A DNA stretch of 45,326 nucleotides from a virus (Duplodnaviria; Caudoviricetes), in IMG/VR virus record IMGVR_UViG_3300021121_000005, positions 1 through 45,326 of that record; one strand, written 5' to 3'. The position numbers and the translations under genes were made by a program. This document shows, one piece after another, positions 6,662 through 15,402 of this stretch (position 1 is its first letter; each line of letters begins with the position of its first letter). The notes beneath the pieces were generated by a model. It saw only the letters and a program-made list of their open reading frames with translations, ran no database searches and was not told the origin of the DNA.

Positions 6662-9262
6662 TTATCTTTTGAAGTTGTTGAGGTTGAATTCCTTAACTCT
6701 TTGAGCAGGAACTTTAAAAGCATCTAGCCAACCAAAACCACCTTTGAACTTGGTAATAGTACGACCTGAAGCATCTCTTTCCTTAATTTCATATTCTGCA
6801 TCATTAGCATACAAAGTAGGAGATTTAGCGGCTTTCAATGCGTCATTAAAAATTTGCTTTTCTGCAATAGAGAGCATCTTTTCACCCTTGATTTCTTTAA
6901 GAAGATTTACATCTTTATAAGTATCAGAGTATGCCTGTAATCCACGCAACAAACGCTTACGATAAGCAATTAAACTTTCGCCTTGTAATGGTCTTGAAGC
7001 AGATTTGCCAAATGATGCAAATACTGAATCAGCTTTAGCTTGAGCATCAGCATATTTTGCTTCTTCTTCATCCATCTTCATGGCTTCTTCATCTTTCTTA
7101 GACATTTTTTTGTCATCGTCATCATCGTCATCATCTTCATCTTTTTTGAATTCCATGTGACCCGGATGTTCTACTTTACCTTCATCATCAGGCTTCATTT
7201 CTCCAGCCTTTCCATATTCTTTAGGATCAGAGCCTTCAGAATCCATGCGATCATCATCGTCATCTTTACGCTTTTTAGCATCCATCTTTCTTTCCATGAA
7301 TTTCTTGGCTTCTGATTCTGATTCTTCTTCATCATCATCGCACATTGCATCATCATCGTCTTTTTTGGCTTTCTTTTTGTCAGCCGCAGTAACCAATGGT
7401 GGTGCTGGTAAGTTTTTTTCCATACTATCTACACGATAAGCAAGATTGCTCAAGGCTGATAGAATGGCATCTAATTTTTCACCTTGGGCATCTGCCTTTG
7501 GTGCATTTACATTTTCATTCATATTTGATACCTCAGGGTTAGTTAATAAAACTCCGGCTGGATCGCCACCTTTATCCCATACTCCCTTAGATCCTCTAGC
7601 TTTGGTAACAATAGCTATATGATCTAAAAGAAATGGAACACCTTCTATTAAGAGTGGTTCACCATTCTCAGTAGTAAGTGTAGTGTTTCCTGCTGTATTG
7701 TCAAATACAACAGAAGGGGATGTACTAATTTCACCTTCGCAAATCTCATTAATTGCGTTTTGATCGTAAATTTTAGCAATACCCCAAACTTCGTCACCTT
7801 TAATATAAGGTAACATAATACTTCCAACTGCTCTATCTTTGAATTCTTTTCCATTCAATACAGCAGTTTCAGGGTGATCCATGATCACCATTAAACCATT
7901 ACATCTTTTTAAAAATTCATCATTTAAATATAGTGACGAATCTCTCCAAACATATTCACCTATAGAACCTCTATATGCTAATCCAGTTCCAGTAATGCGA
8001 ATTGCCAATAGCATAATATTCGCATACATTTGTGGACTTGGCAAAACATTTGCTTTAACTAATTCTGCAACATCCAATTCAGTTTTAATACTTGCTACTT
8101 TCATTGCTATTTCTAAACCGGGGTGCAATGGCTGTGGTGGTTGATTAACAGGACACCAATCGTATCCAGTAGATTCATAATTTAGCTTAACATCGCACTT
8201 TTCAAAACCTCTTGCGATATAAGTACAAAATTGACCATCATCATGCAATACTTCAAGTTTGCCCTTGTAATCAATCCCTGTTTCCTCGAAACATTCTCTA
8301 CGAGCACATTCTTCTAAACTTTCATCTTTTGGGTTCTGATGACCACCGGGTACTGCCCATGTGTAAGGGTAATCCCCACCATCACCTCTGCGAATCATTA
8401 AAACTTCGCCACCATCAGTTAAAAATAATATTCCTGAAGCTCTGCCTTCTGCTCCAGCATCTTTAGCTATAGGCTTGGATTCTTGAGCAGGAACTTGTTC
8501 CCCATGAATATCTGAAATACTCATTGCTGAATCAGGTACACAATTAGGAACTTGTTTACCATTTTTTTCTTTCATACCTACTTGATGGTAATCTTGCCAG
8601 CATGGATCTTCATCAGGAATAGATTCTGCATAATCAATTAAAGCATCCAAGATATTGGTTAAATCATGCTTGACATCATCAGCATCACATTTCCACTTAC
8701 GCAAGGATTTATTAATTCTTGAATCAGGATCATGGGCTGTTTTTTCTGATGTTAATTTTGCTTTCATGCCCTTCATACGAGCACAAAATGACGCTTTTCT
8801 TGATCCACCTTCAGGTTGTGGAGCTTTTAAATGTGCATGGTGAGTTCTATTGTAGTTTTCTCTACCTTTTTCATTTAATCCACCATTTTTATTTTCACCT
8901 TTTTTGGTTTGCCAAACTTCAGTATCAACACCAAATCTAGGAACTAGTTCACCATTTCTGACCATTACATCATCAGATTGCATGGCTTTTTGTAGGTAAT
9001 TATCTACTTTTACACCTAGAATTTTACGACTAATAGCTTCTATTTCATGCCTAATTGAAGCAAGCTGATGCTTCGCTTCGCTTAATTCAGAGCTTTCATC
9101 TTCTATAAATTCAGGGGTACTTAATGGGGTGGGTTCTTCAGGGGATTCATCTTTTGAATGTTTGATGAATTTTTTTGCTACTTCTTTAGGGATGCCAATA
9201 TTGCTTTTGCCACTTGCCGCGGCATACATAGCTTTTCGTTGCTTTTCTGATTCAAATGGCAT
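6662..9262 (-). CDS. Composite prohead protein: N-terminal small modules + Nudix hydrolase + DUF2213-like protease/scaffold
   Basis: Nudix box GGHQNPKDESLEECARRECFEETGI; IRITGTG, MDHP, STSPSV and DHIAIV motifs; acidic low-complexity scaffold-like C-terminus. Confidence 0.75.
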   Translation of the reverse strand: MPFESEKQRKAMYAAASGKSNIGIPKEVAKKFIKHSKDESPEEPTPLSTPEFIEDESSELSEAKHQLASIRHEIEAISRKILGVKVDNYLQKAMQSDDVMVRNGELVPRFGVDTEVWQTKKGENKNGGLNEKGRENYNRTHHAHLKAPQPEGGSRKASFCARMKGMKAKLTSEKTAHDPDSRINKSLRKWKCDADDVKHDLTNILDALIDYAESIPDEDPCWQDYHQVGMKEKNGKQVPNCVPDSAMSISDIHGEQVPAQESKPIAKDAGAEGRASGILFLTDGGEVLMIRRGDGGDYPYTWAVPGGHQNPKDESLEECARRECFEETGIDYKGKLEVLHDDGQFCTYIARGFEKCDVKLNYESTGYDWCPVNQPPQPLHPGLEIAMKVASIKTELDVAELVKANVLPSPQMYANIMLLAIRITGTGLAYRGSIGEYVWRDSSLYLNDEFLKRCNGLMVIMDHPETAVLNGKEFKDRAVGSIMLPYIKGDEVWGIAKIYDQNAINEICEGEISTSPSVVFDNTAGNTTLTTENGEPLLIEGVPFLLDHIAIVTKARGSKGVWDKGGDPAGVLLTNPEVSNMNENVNAPKADAQGEKLDAILSALSNLAYRVDSMEKNLPAPPLVTAADKKKAKKDDDDAMCDDDEEESESEAKKFMERKMDAKKRKDDDDDRMDSEGSDPKEYGKAGEMKPDDEGKVEHPGHMEFKKDEDDDDDDDDKKMSKKDEEAMKMDEEEAKYADAQAKADSVFASFGKSASRPLQGESLIAYRKRLLRGLQAYSDTYKDVNLLKEIKGEKMLSIAEKQIFNDALKAAKSPTLYANDAEYEIKERDASGRTITKFKGGFGWLDAFKVPAQRVKEFNLNNFKR

Positions 9263-9272
9263 AAAAAATACC

Positions 9273-10070
9273 CTACTTAGTTTTTATTGATTGTAATGCC
9301 AATTCCCCTTTTTTTGTCAAAATATTTTTGCATTGTTTTAAATTGTATAAATACACATAATTGCACCTACAATACACTTCTTCACCGGGTTGCGTAATCT
9401 GATCAGTATAACCATTAGGATGAGTTAAATAACCTTCCTTATCAGCCCAAGATCCACGAATAACATAGATTTTTTCATCTCTCTCTTTGTGATCTTTACG
9501 ATAATCATAATTAATTTGTTTCCAGTGGCTATGCCATTTCCCAGCAATAGCTCCATTGTCTACTGCAACTATGTCATTGATATTAGATATTAATTTATGA
9601 GTTTGATCAATAATTACCCTTCTTTGTTCAAACCCTATTTTCCCTAAAGATTTACGAATATCCTTTTTTTGCTGTACACGATCTACAACTTTTGATCCAC
9701 CAGCAGGAATAGATGTTGCCCATCCTTCAAATCTACGCAAAACTGTATTGACTGCTTCTTCACGATTTAATTTAATTAAATTCGCTGATGTGACAATTCT
9801 ACGATCTAGTTCAGCTTGTAGTTTAGGTTTTAGCTTATCAACATCAAATTTACTGATGTTGCCTTTTACTAATGATCCTTTGGTGACTAATCTATAAAAA
9901 GCTGATCTAAGAGCTTTTTCTAATTCTTGCTGTATTTGAGATTCAGGGATAAGTTCAGCTATTGCTGATTTGTAAATTCTATCCATCCACATCCTGATTC
10001 GTTCTTCAGAATCATAACCATTTTCTATGATGTCATTAACAGCTTCAGTTAGGATTTCAAAAAATGTCAT
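9273..10070 (-). CDS. Head morphogenesis protein (MuF / SPP1 gp7-like)
   Basis: DQTHKL, W..H..R..H and PGEEVYCRC motifs. Confidence 0.8.
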   Translation of the reverse strand: MTFFEILTEAVNDIIENGYDSEERIRMWMDRIYKSAIAELIPESQIQQELEKALRSAFYRLVTKGSLVKGNISKFDVDKLKPKLQAELDRRIVTSANLIKLNREEAVNTVLRRFEGWATSIPAGGSKVVDRVQQKKDIRKSLGKIGFEQRRVIIDQTHKLISNINDIVAVDNGAIAGKWHSHWKQINYDYRKDHKERDEKIYVIRGSWADKEGYLTHPNGYTDQITQPGEEVYCRCNYVYLYNLKQCKNILTKKGELALQSIKTK

Positions 10071-10270
10071 TGTTTAATCTTTATAAGAAATAATTCCCAA
10101 GCACTTGGATGCATACGAGCTTTCCCATTTTCATAATTACTCCATCTTGCTTGTGTAGTATATATCAAACTGGATGCTTCAGATTGGCTTAATTTTCCCC
10201 TAGCAGAAATAATTTCTATAGGAGAAGGGACATACCCTTGTATGCCCCTTGATCTTTGTTTAATAACCAT
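10067..10270 (-). CDS. Small XRE-like HTH regulator
   Basis: LSQSEASSLIYTTQARWSNYENGKARM helix-turn-helix pattern. Confidence 0.75.
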   Translation of the reverse strand: MVIKQRSRGIQGYVPSPIEIISARGKLSQSEASSLIYTTQARWSNYENGKARMHPSAWELFLIKIKQ

Positions 10271-10483: not shown

Positions 10484-10542
10484 TCCTTTCGTGTTAATCA
10501 AGACTACATCTTTATATTAATGCTTATTAAGCATAGTGTCAA
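10484..10542 (-). promoter_or_regulatory. Sigma70-type promoter with palindromic operator and CACGAAAGGA box
   Basis: TTGACA-17 nt-TAATAT; spacer contains ATGCTTAATAAGCAT; followed by TGTAGT and CACGAAAGGA. Confidence 0.7.
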
Positions 10543-11060
10543 GCAATTTGTTGCTTTTTTTTCATTAAATTTAAAAATATTTCTATTAAATAAGGATTGT
10601 CAATATTGGCTGAATTAAATACAGCTTGAGCAAATTCAAAATACTTTAGTTTTTTTTCTATGCTCCAGTTGGGTGGACTATCCAATACATCCCTGATATT
10701 GCAAATCTTATCAGCTACTTTGATTAGTTTTCCAGCATAGGAAATACTTTTTACCTTTTGAATTTGTGCCAATTTTCTATCTTCACCATCCAAGCCTACT
10801 GGATCAGTTACATCATCTACGATTTGAGCAATGCAATCATTAAACATATTGCCAATATCTGAAATGCTGATAGCACAATCTTCTACAACATCGTGCAATA
10901 GTGCAGAGCACAAAATATCTTCATCGTGTATACCAGCTTCAAACAATAGTTTAGCAACTGCTATTGGGTGATTAATATATGGAGTTGCATTTGCATCAAG
11001 TCTTTTTTGATCTCGATGCAAAGTGCTTGCCAGTGATATTGCATTAATTAAATTTTTCAA
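10539..11060 (-). CDS. HD-domain small alarmone hydrolase (Mesh1/Aph1-like)
   Basis: HRDQKR..PYINHP, LLHDVVED and KVADKICN motifs. Confidence 0.88.
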   Translation of the reverse strand: MKNLINAISLASTLHRDQKRLDANATPYINHPIAVAKLLFEAGIHDEDILCSALLHDVVEDCAISISDIGNMFNDCIAQIVDDVTDPVGLDGEDRKLAQIQKVKSISYAGKLIKVADKICNIRDVLDSPPNWSIEKKLKYFEFAQAVFNSANIDNPYLIEIFLNLMKKKQQIA

Positions 11061-11089
11061 TTTTTTTTCTTTCGCTTTCTCACAATATC

Positions 11090-11118
11090 ATAGTATCATG
11101 CTTAATAGGTATTTGCAA
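11090..11118 (-). promoter_or_regulatory. Promoter of the HD hydrolase gene with an operator in the spacer
   Basis: TTGCAA-17 nt-TACTAT; ATGCTTAATAGGTAT at 11098-11112. Confidence 0.6.
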
Positions 11119-11163
11119 GGATTTTATTAAAAATAAATATTTTTGTTTTTTTGGACAAATTAC

Positions 11164-11223
11164 TTTACATTTATGCTTAATAGGTATATTATAAAAATGT
11201 AGTCTTAATTAACCACGAAAGGA
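11164..11223 (+). promoter_or_regulatory. Promoter with operator and CACGAAAGGA box
   Basis: TTTACA-17 nt-TATTAT; ATGCTTAATAGGTAT at 11173-11187; TGTAGT; CACGAAAGGA at 11214-11223. Confidence 0.7.
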
Positions 11224-11230
11224 AATTAAA

Positions 11231-11407
11231 ATGCAGATCGCCCAAGCAATTGAAATTATTCAGGAATATCAAGTACAAAATGCTTTGCCTTTTATTTTGG
11301 AAGCTGTAATTGATATGCAAGACAATCGTGAAGATTTAAATCCACAACAACTTATTGCTTTGAATGTTTTTGTAGCAATGGGACAACAAATGTTTGCACC
11401 AGCCTAA
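11231..11407 (+). CDS. Small hypothetical protein (58 aa, not in ORF track)
   Basis: MQIAQAIEIIQEYQVQNALPFILEAVIDMQDN...; strong RBS and upstream promoter. Confidence 0.7.
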   Translation: MQIAQAIEIIQEYQVQNALPFILEAVIDMQDNREDLNPQQLIALNVFVAMGQQMFAPA

Positions 11408-11416
11408 GGAGAAAAA

Positions 11417-11728
11417 ATGAGATACGCAATGCACATAGCTTATTCAGATATAAATCCTTATGAAGTTATTAGGGTAGTTTCTGAAAAATGTATAGAGATC
11501 AGGGCAATGAAAGCTGAAAAAGCTCCTTCTTATAAGCCTGAATTTGTCGCTGGTGGTTTTAGTGCTGTTTGTATAAATCAAGGTGAACAAGAATGGATTA
11601 TTGAGCCTGACGAATCAGCACCAATTATCAGAATCAGAGCAAATAAGAAATTAGGTTGGGCTGATAAGTATGGACAGAAGTTTGTTTTAAGAGATAAGCC
11701 AGTTAAGTATTACGATTACAACTTTTAA
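11417..11728 (+). CDS. Hypothetical phage protein
   Basis: 103 aa, AAGGAG RBS, ends YYDYNF. Confidence 0.7.
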   Translation: MRYAMHIAYSDINPYEVIRVVSEKCIEIRAMKAEKAPSYKPEFVAGGFSAVCINQGEQEWIIEPDESAPIIRIRANKKLGWADKYGQKFVLRDKPVKYYDYNF

Positions 11729-11749
11729 AAAAAGCCCCCAGTAGGGGGC
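11727..11749 (-). terminator. Rho-independent terminator (T-tail on the minus strand)
   Basis: GCCCCC-AGTA-GGGGGC preceded by an A7 run on the plus strand. Confidence 0.65.
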
Positions 11750-11765
11750 AAACGAGGGAAAAATT

Positions 11766-12005
11766 ATGATGTCAAATCAAGAAATGTTGAAGTTCGCAAA
11801 TTATGTTTATAGCTTTTATGGTGCTGGTGGTGTTTATGACATGGGTGTTCCTATTGAAATTATAAGACAAGCTATTCGCTTTTTACAATCCAAAGATGGT
11901 AGAGAGTTTCGTAATGGTTGCCCTGTTTGTGGTGATTCTGTAGATCGTGAACACATCAGAGAAATATTAGAAAAAAAATATGGTTTTTTTGAAATAAACG
12001 CTTGA
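11766..12005 (+). CDS. Hypothetical phage protein
   Basis: 79 aa; FYGAGGVY...GDSVDRE; GAGG RBS. Confidence 0.65.
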   Translation: MMSNQEMLKFANYVYSFYGAGGVYDMGVPIEIIRQAIRFLQSKDGREFRNGCPVCGDSVDREHIREILEKKYGFFEINA

Positions 12006-12058
12006 CATTATGCTTAATTAGTATATACTGTAATTGTAGTAATTATTTCACGAAAGGA
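12002..12058 (+). promoter_or_regulatory. Promoter with operator and CACGAAAGGA box
   Basis: TTGACA-16 nt-TATACT; ATGCTTAATTAGTAT at 12010-12024; TGTAGT; CACGAAAGGA at 12049-12058. Confidence 0.72.
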
Positions 12059-12064
12059 ATAAAA

Positions 12065-12211
12065 ATGGAATTCGAAATTTATGGGTATTTGGTTCGGAAT
12101 TTAGAGCAAGCTAGAGCTGTTCTTGCTTTGGCTGTCGCAAAAGGGCAGTTAGGTAGACAAGCTGTGGCTTTGCAAGTGATCCAACAAATTCAACAACAAG
12201 GGGGTGTGTGA
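12065..12211 (+). CDS. Small hypothetical protein
   Basis: Start moved to the ATG at 12065 (MEFEIYGY...) behind the RBS box. Confidence 0.6.
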   Translation: MEFEIYGYLVRNLEQARAVLALAVAKGQLGRQAVALQVIQQIQQQGGV

Positions 12212-12813
12212 TGGCTGTTCGTGAGTTAAATAGGTATGTTCCTGCTGGTTATGAACCTTTGATGCAGGATGCAGAATATGGCATTGAGATCTTCGCTGAT
12301 TTAAATAGATTGTGTGCCATTGGTTTTGCTGGTAGAAGAAATAATCCTGATTTTAGGTATCGTTTTAGCAATGCAGAAAGGTTAAATGCTTATGTTGCTG
12401 AATATGCTCAAAGGATCAGAGGTAATGCCCAGTACAGAGCACAACAAAGGGCACAAAGGTTAGAAGCCAGTAGGCAAGTTGTTGTGAATGTTGGTGACAT
12501 TTTCAGAAGTAGCTGGGGATATGAACAAACAAATATTGATTATTATCAGGTTGTTGCTGTTCGTGGTCGTATGATAGATGTAAGACCTATCAGCCAGTTA
12601 AGAGAGGGAAATGGATGTCCTGATCAGGGTTACTGTGTTCCTGTTCCAAATAGCTTTGTGGGTGATGCAGTTAGTAGTTATCGTGCCCAAGGTGATGCTG
12701 AAAATGCTTACTTTAGAGTTGCGAGTTACGCAAATGCGTATAGAATTAATCCTGTGGCTGTTGTTGCTGGTGTTCCAATTTACGAGCAAAGTCATTGGAC
12801 TGCTTACTACTGA
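12208..12813 (+). CDS. Hypothetical protein (SWGYEQTN motif)
   Basis: 201 aa; VGDIFRSSWGYEQTNIDYYQVV segment that I recall from mobile-element accessory proteins. Confidence 0.7.
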   Translation: MMAVRELNRYVPAGYEPLMQDAEYGIEIFADLNRLCAIGFAGRRNNPDFRYRFSNAERLNAYVAEYAQRIRGNAQYRAQQRAQRLEASRQVVVNVGDIFRSSWGYEQTNIDYYQVVAVRGRMIDVRPISQLREGNGCPDQGYCVPVPNSFVGDAVSSYRAQGDAENAYFRVASYANAYRINPVAVVAGVPIYEQSHWTAYY

Positions 12814-12828
12814 TCTAGTAGGTTTTCC

Positions 12829-12853
12829 AGCCCCTTGAATAAAGGGGTTTTTT
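12829..12853 (+). terminator. Rho-independent terminator
   Basis: AGCCCCTT/AAGGGGTT stem followed by a T-run. Confidence 0.75.
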
Positions 12854-12903
12854 GCAAGCTAAAATCATAGTATTATGATAAAATATAACTGAAAGGATTT
12901 AAT

Positions 12904-13101
12904 ATGCAATTCGACAAATCAGCTAGATTCTATGTTACTGAGGATGGTATTCCTGTTGTTTGTGGTGGTGGTGGTGATCTACCTTACTGTTCAGCATGGG
13001 ATCGTAAAGAGCCAAGAGAATATAAACTAAGTGGCTTTTATATGCCCTGTAGTTATGAGGGTTTCGAAGAAGCTAGAATTTCTTGCCAAGCTGAATCATA
13101 A
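12904..13101 (+). CDS. Small protein, candidate immunity/antitoxin of the convergent synthetase
   Basis: 65 aa; GAAAGGA RBS; own TTGCAA/TATGAT promoter; 49-bp tail-to-tail overlap with 13053..13976. Function is inferred from context only. Confidence 0.5.
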   Translation: MQFDKSARFYVTEDGIPVVCGGGGDLPYCSAWDRKEPREYKLSGFYMPCSYEGFEEARISCQAES

Positions 13102-13976
13102 GCAACTTTCATTTCTTTCATTAATTTAGTTCTAGTTGCTTCTTCTTCCTGAGTTAATGGTCTTTTAGAAGTATTTGCTTCAGCTTCCATTTCTCGAATA
13201 ACTTCATAATGCTTATGAAAGCCTTCTTTTGCTTTTAGCATGGGTGCAAAATTAACTTGTATTTCTGCGTATGTTCCATCAATTTCCACAACCATATTAA
13301 TATCACGATAACCAGTATCAAATAAAGAACCCTTATCAGGATCTAATAGATTTCTTTCTTTAACTGGCTTACCATATTTTTCTTTGATCTTATCAATTGA
13401 TTTTTGCACATCAGATAATGAATTGATTTGTATTGTAGATCTTACAAGATCTTTAAGTTTACTAGCATCACCATCATAATCAGATAGAATTTTCTCTACT
13501 GCTCTAGCTGTTCCCTTCAATGGAACATCAACATATTTACCACCAAGTTCTTGAGCTATACCTTCGTTGATCTTGTCATAGTGCACTTTTACCTCTGAAG
13601 CCCTTTGATACATGGATTCTAATTTAGTCTTGGCTTGTGGACTTAATGGTTCAAGATCGTTAGGCTTAAAACTTTCACCAAAGAATTCTTTAGCAGTTGT
13701 GCTTTTCTTTTTAGCTGTTGGAGCTTTAGGTTTAGATAATAAAGCTGGAGTTGCTGGAGTTGTAATAGGTGCTACTGCTTTTCCTGTAGTTGGTGCTTCT
13801 GCTCCACCACCTGCACTGGTGAATTTGCCATCAGTATCTCTAGGATGATCTGCTTCTTGCCATATAGCATCATTAACAACTAAATAATCTTGTGATCTCA
13901 ATAAAGCACATACAGCTTGTGTATGTTTAGGATAAACAGTTACAAATTGCCCTGATTTTTTATTGAGAAATCGCAT
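13053..13976 (-). CDS. RelA/SpoT-superfamily small synthetase (toxSAS/Apk-like) with N-terminal HPR motif
   Basis: LKGTARAVEK, KDLVRSTI, GYRDINM and AEIQV synthetase-like motifs; WQEADHPRDTDGKF N-terminal motif. Confidence 0.78.
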   Translation of the reverse strand: MRFLNKKSGQFVTVYPKHTQAVCALLRSQDYLVVNDAIWQEADHPRDTDGKFTSAGGGAEAPTTGKAVAPITTPATPALLSKPKAPTAKKKSTTAKEFFGESFKPNDLEPLSPQAKTKLESMYQRASEVKVHYDKINEGIAQELGGKYVDVPLKGTARAVEKILSDYDGDASKLKDLVRSTIQINSLSDVQKSIDKIKEKYGKPVKERNLLDPDKGSLFDTGYRDINMVVEIDGTYAEIQVNFAPMLKAKEGFHKHYEVIREMEAEANTSKRPLTQEEEATRTKLMKEMKVAYDSAWQEILASSKPS

Positions 13977-13986
13977 AACAGCACTC

Positions 13987-15402
13987 CTAAGATACTTTAC
14001 GAGTTAATTTTTCTTCAGGCATTGTTCCCTGAGGTGGTTCATATTCAGATATTAAATCAGGATCAAGATTTAATGAACTTTCAAATAAATCTTCCATTTC
14101 ATTAATATTATCCTGTGCCCATTGTATCAATGTTGCTCTGTTTTGTGGATCTATGACTGGTAAAACAGTACGCAATACTTCATTAATAGATTTAATCTTG
14201 ATGTCTGCAACTTTAACTTTTTCGCTTGGTGGTTCTTCCATGAGAGAAGTCCAATCAGCTTTATATGCATTTTGCCACATATAAAAAGCCTGCTCATAAG
14301 TCTTATCCTTGTAGATTTCAGGATATTGATTTTGAACTGCTTCGAAAAATTCTCTATTCCATGCACGATGCTGTACGATCTTGTCAAAGAATTTAAACAA
14401 GCTATCCATGTCATTTCTAATACCATCTATGAATTGAACTATGGCTTTTGCATCCTCTGTACCTTCTCCAAATCCTTGCGTAAATGCTTCATCTTTGAGC
14501 AACAATGCAGGAACATCAGAAGCAGCGGCTATGTTCGCTATGATGTTATTTCTAGCAGTTGTCATAGCAGTATCAGTATTAGTGAGATTTAGTGCTTCTA
14601 TACTTTCATCAATATCAATAGAAAGCACATTACCTGTTGCTCCTTGCTGAAGATATGTTCTCTTAATGCCAGCCGCCATTTGCATCAAATTATTAACAAT
14701 TGATCCAGCAGGTTTTTGTTTTGAAATTAATAATCCAGCCTTAAAAGTTACCAAATCATCAGTGATCATGGATTGCACAAATGATTTCAAAGGATATAAA
14801 GCTCTTAAAAATACTGATCTACCAGTAAAGCCAAACGCTGAGGATTGGAAACTTAAATAAATTGGAGTGTTGTTAAATACAACTACTGATCTACTAGGAT
14901 GATATGGTTGCCCTGCCGCTGTACTATAAGCCAATGGCTTTTGGAAATCAGGAGCATTAGGGTTTTGATTCGTGACAATAGAACCAGCCAAATTCAAAGG
15001 ATCGAGTTGATTAAAATAAATCTCTTGATCAGCAAGTTTCCATAAATCTAATGGTTCAGTTGTAGGTATATTGGGAGCACCAATAACGATAGCACCAGCA
15101 CCATAAGCTCTTTTGATAAAGCTCACATCACGAATATGGTTCGTTGCTCCTAATTTTTCCCATTCTCTCTCAAATGCTTCCACCAACATTTCTTTTGGTT
15201 CAGCATCTACTGTAATGATTCTAGGTTTGGATAAAGCCATCATAATTGGCTTTTCTACCAGTTTTCCACCTAAAGGATGATATTCCCATAGGGTTTTACA
15301 TAATTCATAACTAGCATTATCACCGGGCTGTATATCACCTGAAGCAAGAATATTCATTAGATTTCCACCAATGGTTGTAGTAGTTATCGTTATATCTGAC
15401 AT
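13987..15402 (-). CDS. Portal protein (DUF1073-like)
   Basis: 471 aa directly after the terminase large subunit; YHPSRSVV and IAAASDVPALLL..GEGTED motifs. Confidence 0.8.
   Translation of the reverse strand: MSDITITTTTIGGNLMNILASGDIQPGDNASYELCKTLWEYHPLGGKLVEKPIMMALSKPRIITVDAEPKEMLVEAFEREWEKLGATNHIRDVSFIKRAYGAGAIVIGAPNIPTTEPLDLWKLADQEIYFNQLDPLNLAGSIVTNQNPNAPDFQKPLAYSTAAGQPYHPSRSVVVFNNTPIYLSFQSSAFGFTGRSVFLRALYPLKSFVQSMITDDLVTFKAGLLISKQKPAGSIVNNLMQMAAGIKRTYLQQGATGNVLSIDIDESIEALNLTNTDTAMTTARNNIIANIAAASDVPALLLKDEAFTQGFGEGTEDAKAIVQFIDGIRNDMDSLFKFFDKIVQHRAWNREFFEAVQNQYPEIYKDKTYEQAFYMWQNAYKADWTSLMEEPPSEKVKVADIKIKSINEVLRTVLPVIDPQNRATLIQWAQDNINEMEDLFESSLNLDPDLISEYEPPQGTMPEEKLTRKVS

Follow-up and report, generated by a model that had tools for sequence, protein, structure and literature searches.

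A predicted head-delivered alarmone synthetase and its convergent putative immunity gene behind the portal gene of a Caudoviricetes virus

The virus record IMGVR_UViG_3300021121_000005 (Caudoviricetes; 92% complete), whose positions 1–45,326 form the window of 45,326 nucleotides (nt) analyzed here, carries a 307-amino acid (aa) alarmone synthetase gene (13,053–13,976, − strand) directly behind its portal gene, together with a convergent 65-aa gene (12,904–13,101, + strand) and a Mesh1-like hydrolase gene (10,539–11,060, − strand). We propose, with a probability of roughly 0.6, that the head likely takes up the intact synthetase, which would enter the cell along with the DNA and act there as an antibacterial toxin, and that the 65-aa protein, produced early from a predicted promoter, is likely its specific inhibitor. 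This proposal is based on catalytic motifs, the portal-adjacent position, a shared leader, the fusion of relatives to portal, MuF, and other virion proteins, and a selected antisense gene that moves jointly with the toxin domain, all read from sequence. A preliminary description of this DNA had placed the synthetase directly after portal and unfused to MuF, with the 65-aa gene overlapping its 3′ end tail to tail and an HD hydrolase about 2 kb away. This layout was confirmed: the synthetase starts 10 nt past the portal open reading frame (ORF; 13,987–15,402, −; PF06381, E 4.8e-16), shows no MuF match, and is separate from the MuF-like gene; the tail-to-tail overlap is 49 nt, and the hydrolase gene lies 2.0 kb from the synthetase.

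The synthetase consists, in order, of a leader, an HPR tag, a Pro/Thr/Lys linker, and a catalytic domain (about residues 115–293). Its sole significant PDB match was Tas1 (6ox6_A; E 4.8e-12 by sequence and E 6.2e-23 by profile), Pfam RelA_SpoT gave no score on it, and phrog_7625 matched the catalytic part only. K154, R158, K162, D176, R179, Y223, E238, Q240, and H254 were invariant in an alignment with 30 relatives. The Apk1 residues R330, N370, and E382, named in the accessible part of PMC12691689, map onto R179, N227, and E238 of the window enzyme, assuming that chain and paper numbering differ by a constant 21, which fits all three residues. The GYRDIN motif, noted earlier as a replacement of the canonical GY.S.H, is present at residues 222–227. 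By sequence, the 307-aa protein is thus an intact Tas1/RelV-type alarmone synthetase; at 50% clustering, its catalytic domain had 2052 representatives, the best 150 of which were listed. Identity as a tRNA-modifying toxSAS was rejected on sequence grounds, as a profile search gave no PDB match besides Tas1 at E up to 1. A frameshift fusing portal and synthetase was also rejected, as relatives place a further gene between the two.

The C-terminal tails of long synthetase relatives contain a conserved segment that reads like the 65-aa protein on the other strand. To compare these loci, DNA of the 80 best among 86 viral loci found in one scan was combined with that of the earlier loci, of phage PHB04, and of the window and grouped into 39 toxin clusters at 70% identity; L080, whose matched stretch lacks GYRD, was dropped. 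A profile grown from the window 65-aa protein detected a homologue in 33 of the 39 cluster representatives, all on the strand opposite to the toxin and none on the toxin strand. All but one (32/33) ended 206–278 nt after GYRD in a single relative frame, and 25 were wholly nested in the toxin ORF. These 25 nested genes had a Shine-Dalgarno (SD) sequence in 23 cases, a −10 box in 20, and both in 20, compared with both in 1 of 1173 antisense starts in the same ORFs and in 0 of 915 starts chosen by applying the same best-of-window rule. At toxin-silent third positions that decide the antisense residue, 213 of 220 cells kept the commonest residue (107 expected), and 12 of 13 columns were conserved at ≥ 90%. 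The catalytic domain of these loci served as a control: its silent sites gave 695 of 1035 cells, and 2 of 73 columns reached 90%; the cells of this test are mutually dependent, and the control shares the same dependence. With a profile built from the 25 nested loci, the segment was found right after the domain in 86 of 114 long representatives and elsewhere in none. In the window the gene is un-nested, and the sense frame has three stops in the 49 codons beyond the toxin end. These results indicate that the 65-aa convergent gene is genuine and under selection at the protein level. The six clusters without a profile match include L071, L079, and L083, in which different small ORFs, also antisense, use the same frame and have SD and −10 signals, and L082, whose antisense gene resembles the same-strand small gene of PHB04.

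Given its small size, its strict linkage, and its joint exchange with the toxin domain, the 65-aa protein is likely an immunity protein or specific inhibitor of the synthetase, and the antisense immunity candidate of the preliminary description gains support from this comparison. A search at E up to 0.001 added 79 members to the family, and none of 32 members could be placed in a Pfam or PHROG family. PDB searches with the 65-aa protein and its profile gave no meaningful match, tblastn of a nested member against cultured phages gave no match, and all Atlas matches fell below the Atlas threshold. A single-sequence model predicted four strands (pLDDT 51) and was too poor to use. Membership in Tis1/IapK was rejected by sequence (PF24154 matched 0/32 members, while the positive control L185 gave E 1.5e-36) and by profile–profile comparison with hhalign (E 0.13, probability 0.4%, the C-terminal motif alone being aligned). 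Comparison with the PHB04-type small gene gave a profile E of 0.22. Three relatives (P0011, P0128, and P0139) carry an in-frame 60-aa C-terminal domain that weakly resembles the antisense family (profile E 0.003, probability 10%, a lead only) and are possible single-chain toxin-antitoxins. Pore-forming colicins have convergent immunity genes, a precedent for the orientation and not for the nesting. No antisense-nested immunity layout was found in the literature searched, which covered few subscription papers.

The 37-aa leader (residues 1–37; 13,866–13,976, −) is common to unrelated cargo genes directly behind portal, and all leader-profile matches listed fall in genes just behind portal. The HPR tag, D-x-x-(W/F)-x-E-x-D-HPR-x3-G-x-F (13,803–13,865, −), also occurs between portal and synthetase in portal fusions. 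Pfam searches on 61 representatives revealed five portal fusions, one MuF fusion, and nine proteins with ddrB-ParB (polyvalent proteins); the portal and MuF fusions ranked among the ten closest. Matches of 36 carrier ORFs from the loci included portal, internal virion protein, and DarB-like families; the accessible part of PMC5512222 notes that phage polyvalent proteins can carry RelA/SpoT domains. The leader, the HPR tag, or both may direct packaging into the head. The virion-linked synthetase toxin that had been suggested earlier is supported by these closest relatives.

The leader is a constant part to which different cargos are attached. The sequenced portal part of L114 is 100% identical to the window, its sharing of the cassette is limited to 13,873–13,976, and it rejoins the window at 10,071; in between are a 547-aa HExxH-motif protein on a nearly identical leader and a 50-aa gene. 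The near-identical phages L001–L005 keep the N-terminal part and have a different synthetase domain (50% identity) and a different antisense allele (47%). The window and L001 domains fell in different parts of quick trees, and an approximately unbiased (AU) test of the two as one clade was borderline (p 0.050, no clear rejection). Among 80 portal-anchored loci, 60 reach from portal to MuF; 51 of these complete slots had no cassette, five had the synthetase and the small gene, and four had all three genes, and neither the small gene nor the hydrolase was ever present without the synthetase. Judged from sequence, a constant N-terminal carrier with exchangeable C-terminal cargo and a linked small gene is polymorphic-toxin behavior.

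Several loci carry related arrangements. The combination of leader, HExxH (metalloprotease-like) cargo, and a following acidic 50-aa same-strand gene was observed in L114 (995–2787), L094 (1528–3329), and L095 (9423–11,054), and is a candidate second toxin-immunity pair. In L098 (8001–10,592), portal is joined via the HPR tag to a P-loop domain (GGSGSGKS), which we take to be zeta-toxin-like, with a similar small-gene island after it. Extra short leader-bearing genes with varied C-termini sit between portal and synthetase or MuF in L001 (6001–6453), L004 (6001–6387), L097, L102, L104, and P0010. At leader and tag junctions, N/K/A-D-A/D/S usually precedes the cargo modules; speculatively, this could be a head-protease cut site.

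In the mechanism that we propose, the leader and HPR tag would carry the synthetase into the head. On entry, the enzyme would convert ATP and an acceptor into a 3′-pyrophosphorylated nucleotide and stall the host. Transcription of a surviving genome would then yield the 65-aa protein to block the enzyme; this protein would also protect the producing cell late in infection. The optional Mesh1-like hydrolase would clear the nucleotide product. The antisense layout likely exists because it makes antidote transcription independent of the late operon and allows the toxin domain to lie inside a longer virion protein without loss of the antidote. A bolder version, which we regard only as tentative and rather unlikely, is that a large phage clade injects a synthetase with its genome, with the antidote written backwards in the toxin frame under its own promoter and ribosome site, as a dead-man switch. 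If so, the toxin domain would be a self-protected cassette insertable midway in any virion protein. If the cell destroyed or silenced the entering DNA, no antidote would be made and the cell would be stalled or killed, and a permissive cell would receive only a short, phage-timed stringent-like pulse.

Several points weigh against delivery of an antidote-paired toxin by the virion. The synthetase of the window lacks a fusion to any known virion protein, and the packaging role of its leader is putative. The 65-aa family has no sequence match to Tis1. The hydrolase was present within about 6 kb in 4 of the 39 toxin clusters and missing in 35, and 30 of 38 viral hydrolase homologues had no nearby GYRD synthetase. 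Many loci are near-duplicate contigs, and the cells of the selection test are not independent. Tyrosine and serine integrases (PF00589, PF00239) gave 0/5 matches in the window record and four relatives (90–100% complete), while the characterized MuF toxins are of temperate-phage origin (PMC5576092, accessible part).

Regarding the nucleotide product, the sequences lean slightly toward (p)ppGpp or a mixed product, and any other outcome than these or (p)ppApp is improbable. That the enzyme makes (p)ppApp exclusively, as a functional counterpart of Apk2 that drains ATP instead of mimicking the stringent response, is a serious possibility that falls short of being probable. The window domain shares 32% identity with ten Tas1-like enzymes against 25% with eight RelV-like genomic proteins, and its syn2 R-x-T, N227, and EIQVN are as in Tas1. 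In addition, the Mesh1-like SAHMex cleaves only ppApp; since MESH1 cleaves both nucleotides (PMC10083569, accessible part), the type of hydrolase leaves the product unsettled. On the other hand, syn3 is DxN here, whereas Apk enzymes have GxN (PMC12226406). GYRDLN occurs in Vibrio sequences of the available PMC12691689 supplements; the RelV-group sequences in which it was read did not include that of VpEAS, the tested member of this group, which makes pppGpp only according to the accessible part of that paper. Furthermore, hydrolases encoded next to Tas1-like genes mostly have the Aph1 D-K-A/S motif (18 of 23), where those of all three GYRD phage lineages have Arg. The earlier parallel with (p)ppApp enzymes is therefore weakened, as the motif points at least equally to (p)ppGpp. 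In a quick tree, the RelV-like proteins, which share GYRD, formed their own clade (99), and the Tas1-like enzymes, with GYSGxN, formed a separate long-branch clade (99); an AU test of the window group and the Tas1-like enzymes as one clade gave p 0.17. Since GYRD occurs on both sides of the split between the RelV-like and window groups, the sequences suggest that GYRD is the older state and GYSG a derived, adenine-specific one.

The 173-aa hydrolase (TTG start; HD_4, E 8e-16) was most similar in the PDB to human MESH1 (E 7e-30) and fly MESH1 (E 9e-30). Its single HD_4 domain with an intact HDxxED motif agrees with the Mesh1-like assignment made earlier. Membership in Aph1 was rejected, because the window enzyme has Q-K-R-L and N-I-R-D-V-L where Aph1 has D24 (D-K-A) and N-x-D-x-x-R; the parallel with Aph1 that had been drawn is thus not borne out by sequence. 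Asp24, in whose place the window enzyme and the other two phage lineages have Arg, is one of two positions whose change gave Aph1 ppGpp activity (PMC10083569, accessible part). Many Tas1-like loci of bacterial genomes (L169–L192) show the three-gene arrangement that has been described for Apk2, with Tis1 followed by a hydrolase of the Aph1 type. The expected co-occurrence of the three genes in relatives held for the small gene (33/39 clusters) and not for the hydrolase (4/39).

It is possible, though doubtful, that the hydrolase does not belong to the toxin system and is expressed early on its own to reduce (p)ppGpp in the host. The gene has its own likely operator-bearing promoter 2 kb off and is absent from most toxin loci, most of its viral homologues stand without a synthetase, and lone phage small alarmone hydrolases (SAHs) have been described (PMC12846349, accessible part). 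Against this, the GYRD synthetase was found in 8 of the 38 viral loci centered on hydrolase homologues, including all seven closest homologues (over 160 bits), and the hydrolase was present in 0 of the 51 toxin-free slots. In the cultured phage PHB04 (L006; MF663786.1, 5077–7342), portal, a GYRD synthetase annotated as hypothetical, a 69-aa same-strand gene, and a Mesh1-like hydrolase stand in a row. The association amounts to three lineages, namely the window with the L001 group, two of five L023-group loci, and PHB04. The hydrolase would be an optional second antidote at best.

Alternatively, the synthetase and the 65-aa gene may form a toxin-antitoxin or competition module that acts only within the infected cell and is not delivered by the virion; a late toxin restrained by an early inhibitor would then harm co-infecting phages or time the end of infection. 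The window protein is standalone, its packaging is only predicted, and other toxSAS pairs act inside the cell (PMC11782079, accessible part). Nevertheless, we consider this module unlikely, as portal or MuF fusions and domains within virion-type proteins make up the closest relatives, and the leader is common to other cargos behind portal. The least probable alternative, a shadow ORF of a conserved sense-strand linker or an element acting as RNA, is already largely refuted: because their wobble positions coincide, conservation of either frame constrains the other to some extent, but antisense Trp was kept at third positions free in the toxin frame in 22 of 22 cases (7.7 expected), the gene was kept despite one to four sense-frame stops in six clusters and lies 290 nt past the end of the long ORF in L030, and its SD and start codon are conserved.

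Among known systems, the closest parallel is Apk2-IapK-Aph1 of temperate phages (PMC12226406; PMC10083569, accessible part), whose head module likewise encodes a synthetase related to Tas1, accompanied by a small gene and an HD hydrolase that can be missing. The window enzyme has the Tas1-related domain with intact catalytic residues found in Apk2. Membership in Apk2 was rejected, because the window enzyme has no N-terminal MuF domain and its syn3 is GYRDIN, not GxN. It has the 37-aa leader instead, and its relatives occur as portal fusions or within virion proteins. The small gene is antisense, often nested in relatives, and without a Tis1 match, so that the IapK parallel suggested previously fails by sequence; the hydrolase is Mesh1-like, not Aph1, and no integrase was found. 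The window system likely works like Apk2 without being a member of it. Tas1/Apk1-Tis1, a type VI secretion system effector pair (PDB 6OX6), is the only PDB match and has the same conserved catalytic residues, but the Tas1-like enzymes form a separate clade with GYSGxN, a same-strand Tis1, and mostly Aph1-type hydrolases. The exported RelV/VpEAS synthetases (PMC12691689, accessible part) share GYRD-x-N at syn3 and differ in clade and identity (25%); they are chromosomal and have a Sec signal peptide and no immunity gene. Phage polyvalent RelA/SpoT proteins, for which alarmone-like host shutdown was proposed, have the same kinds of carrier (ddrB-ParB, LPD38, InPase, MuF), while the accessible part of PMC5512222 describes neither an immunity gene that is antisense or nested nor a leader family next to portal. 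MESH1/SAHMex enzymes are the best PDB matches of the hydrolase, which has about 7 of 10 SAHMex marker residues as judged by spacing; unlike them, it is phage-encoded and stands beside a synthetase.

Antisense-nested immunity would add to phage polymorphic toxins a layout that is new in the literature searched, although the kind of system is known. The role of virion-linked toxins was stated as open in the Apk2 work (PMC12226406), and the cassette provides a small case, not a MuF fusion, in which this role can be tested. With the toxin ORF, the nested gene also forms a complete overlap of two protein-coding frames that is rare, is conserved widely, and has expression signals of its own. Because gene callers set to forbid such overlaps would miss the nested gene, toxin domains in large virion proteins may falsely look antidote-free. 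Lying between the G-specific (RelV) and A-specific (Tas1) groups, the GYRD clade is a natural place to ask how acceptor specificity switched.

The expression signals suggest separate control of the cassette genes. The 65-aa gene has a likely promoter (TTTGCA-17-TATGAT) and SD sequence (GAAAGGA) at 12,851–12,897 (+), and these signals are conserved in relatives. In this respect the separate promoter claimed in the preliminary description is supported; consensus matches alone were at chance level, with 19 promoter-like sites in the window against 17.1 expected. A terminator-like hairpin (12,832–12,847, +) lies between the island and the 65-aa gene, weak alone as the scan found four against 2.6 expected. 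The likely hydrolase promoter (TTGCAA-17-TACTAT; 11,118–11,090, −) was read by eye and is absent from the scan's list, but its spacer holds a copy (11,098–11,112) of a palindromic, operator-like 15-nt repeat that occurs well above chance. This repeat (10,520–10,534; further copies at 11,098, 11,173, 12,010, and 21,891) had six matches at five sites in the window against 0.29 expected and in 0 of 100 shuffles. It marks five promoter-like places, including those of the hydrolase and the island; no copy was found in the promoter region of the 65-aa gene. The 67-aa helix-turn-helix (HTH) protein (10,067–10,270, −; HTH_31, E 2.8e-4, below the cut-off), whose gene overlaps the MuF start, likely binds the repeat; an HTH homologue was present in 9/9 cassette-bearing loci and in 0/51 loci without the cassette, from few lineages. 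We infer that the hydrolase and island are expressed early and later repressed, whereas the 65-aa inhibitor is unrepressed.

The cassette is further accompanied by the HTH gene and five small + strand genes (58, 103, 79, 48, and 201 aa; 11,231–12,813) with unassigned functions, whose content varies among relatives. A terminator-like hairpin inside this island (11,734–11,749, −) faces the late direction; given this hairpin, the downstream MuF and head genes would need the operator-bearing promoter at 10,542 or antitermination. The downstream boundary is a short MuF-like head protein without a toxin domain (9273–10,070, −; phrog_324, E 1.3e-23), for which no Pfam MuF match was obtained. The window also encodes sheath and baseplate genes, and the portal relatives in cultured phages are 45–49% identical to its portal. 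In the head module, an 866-aa head protein (6662–9262, −) joins DUF6321, a Nudix domain, and a DUF2213 protease/scaffold part, the Nudix domain being a second nucleotide-cleaving domain of this module.

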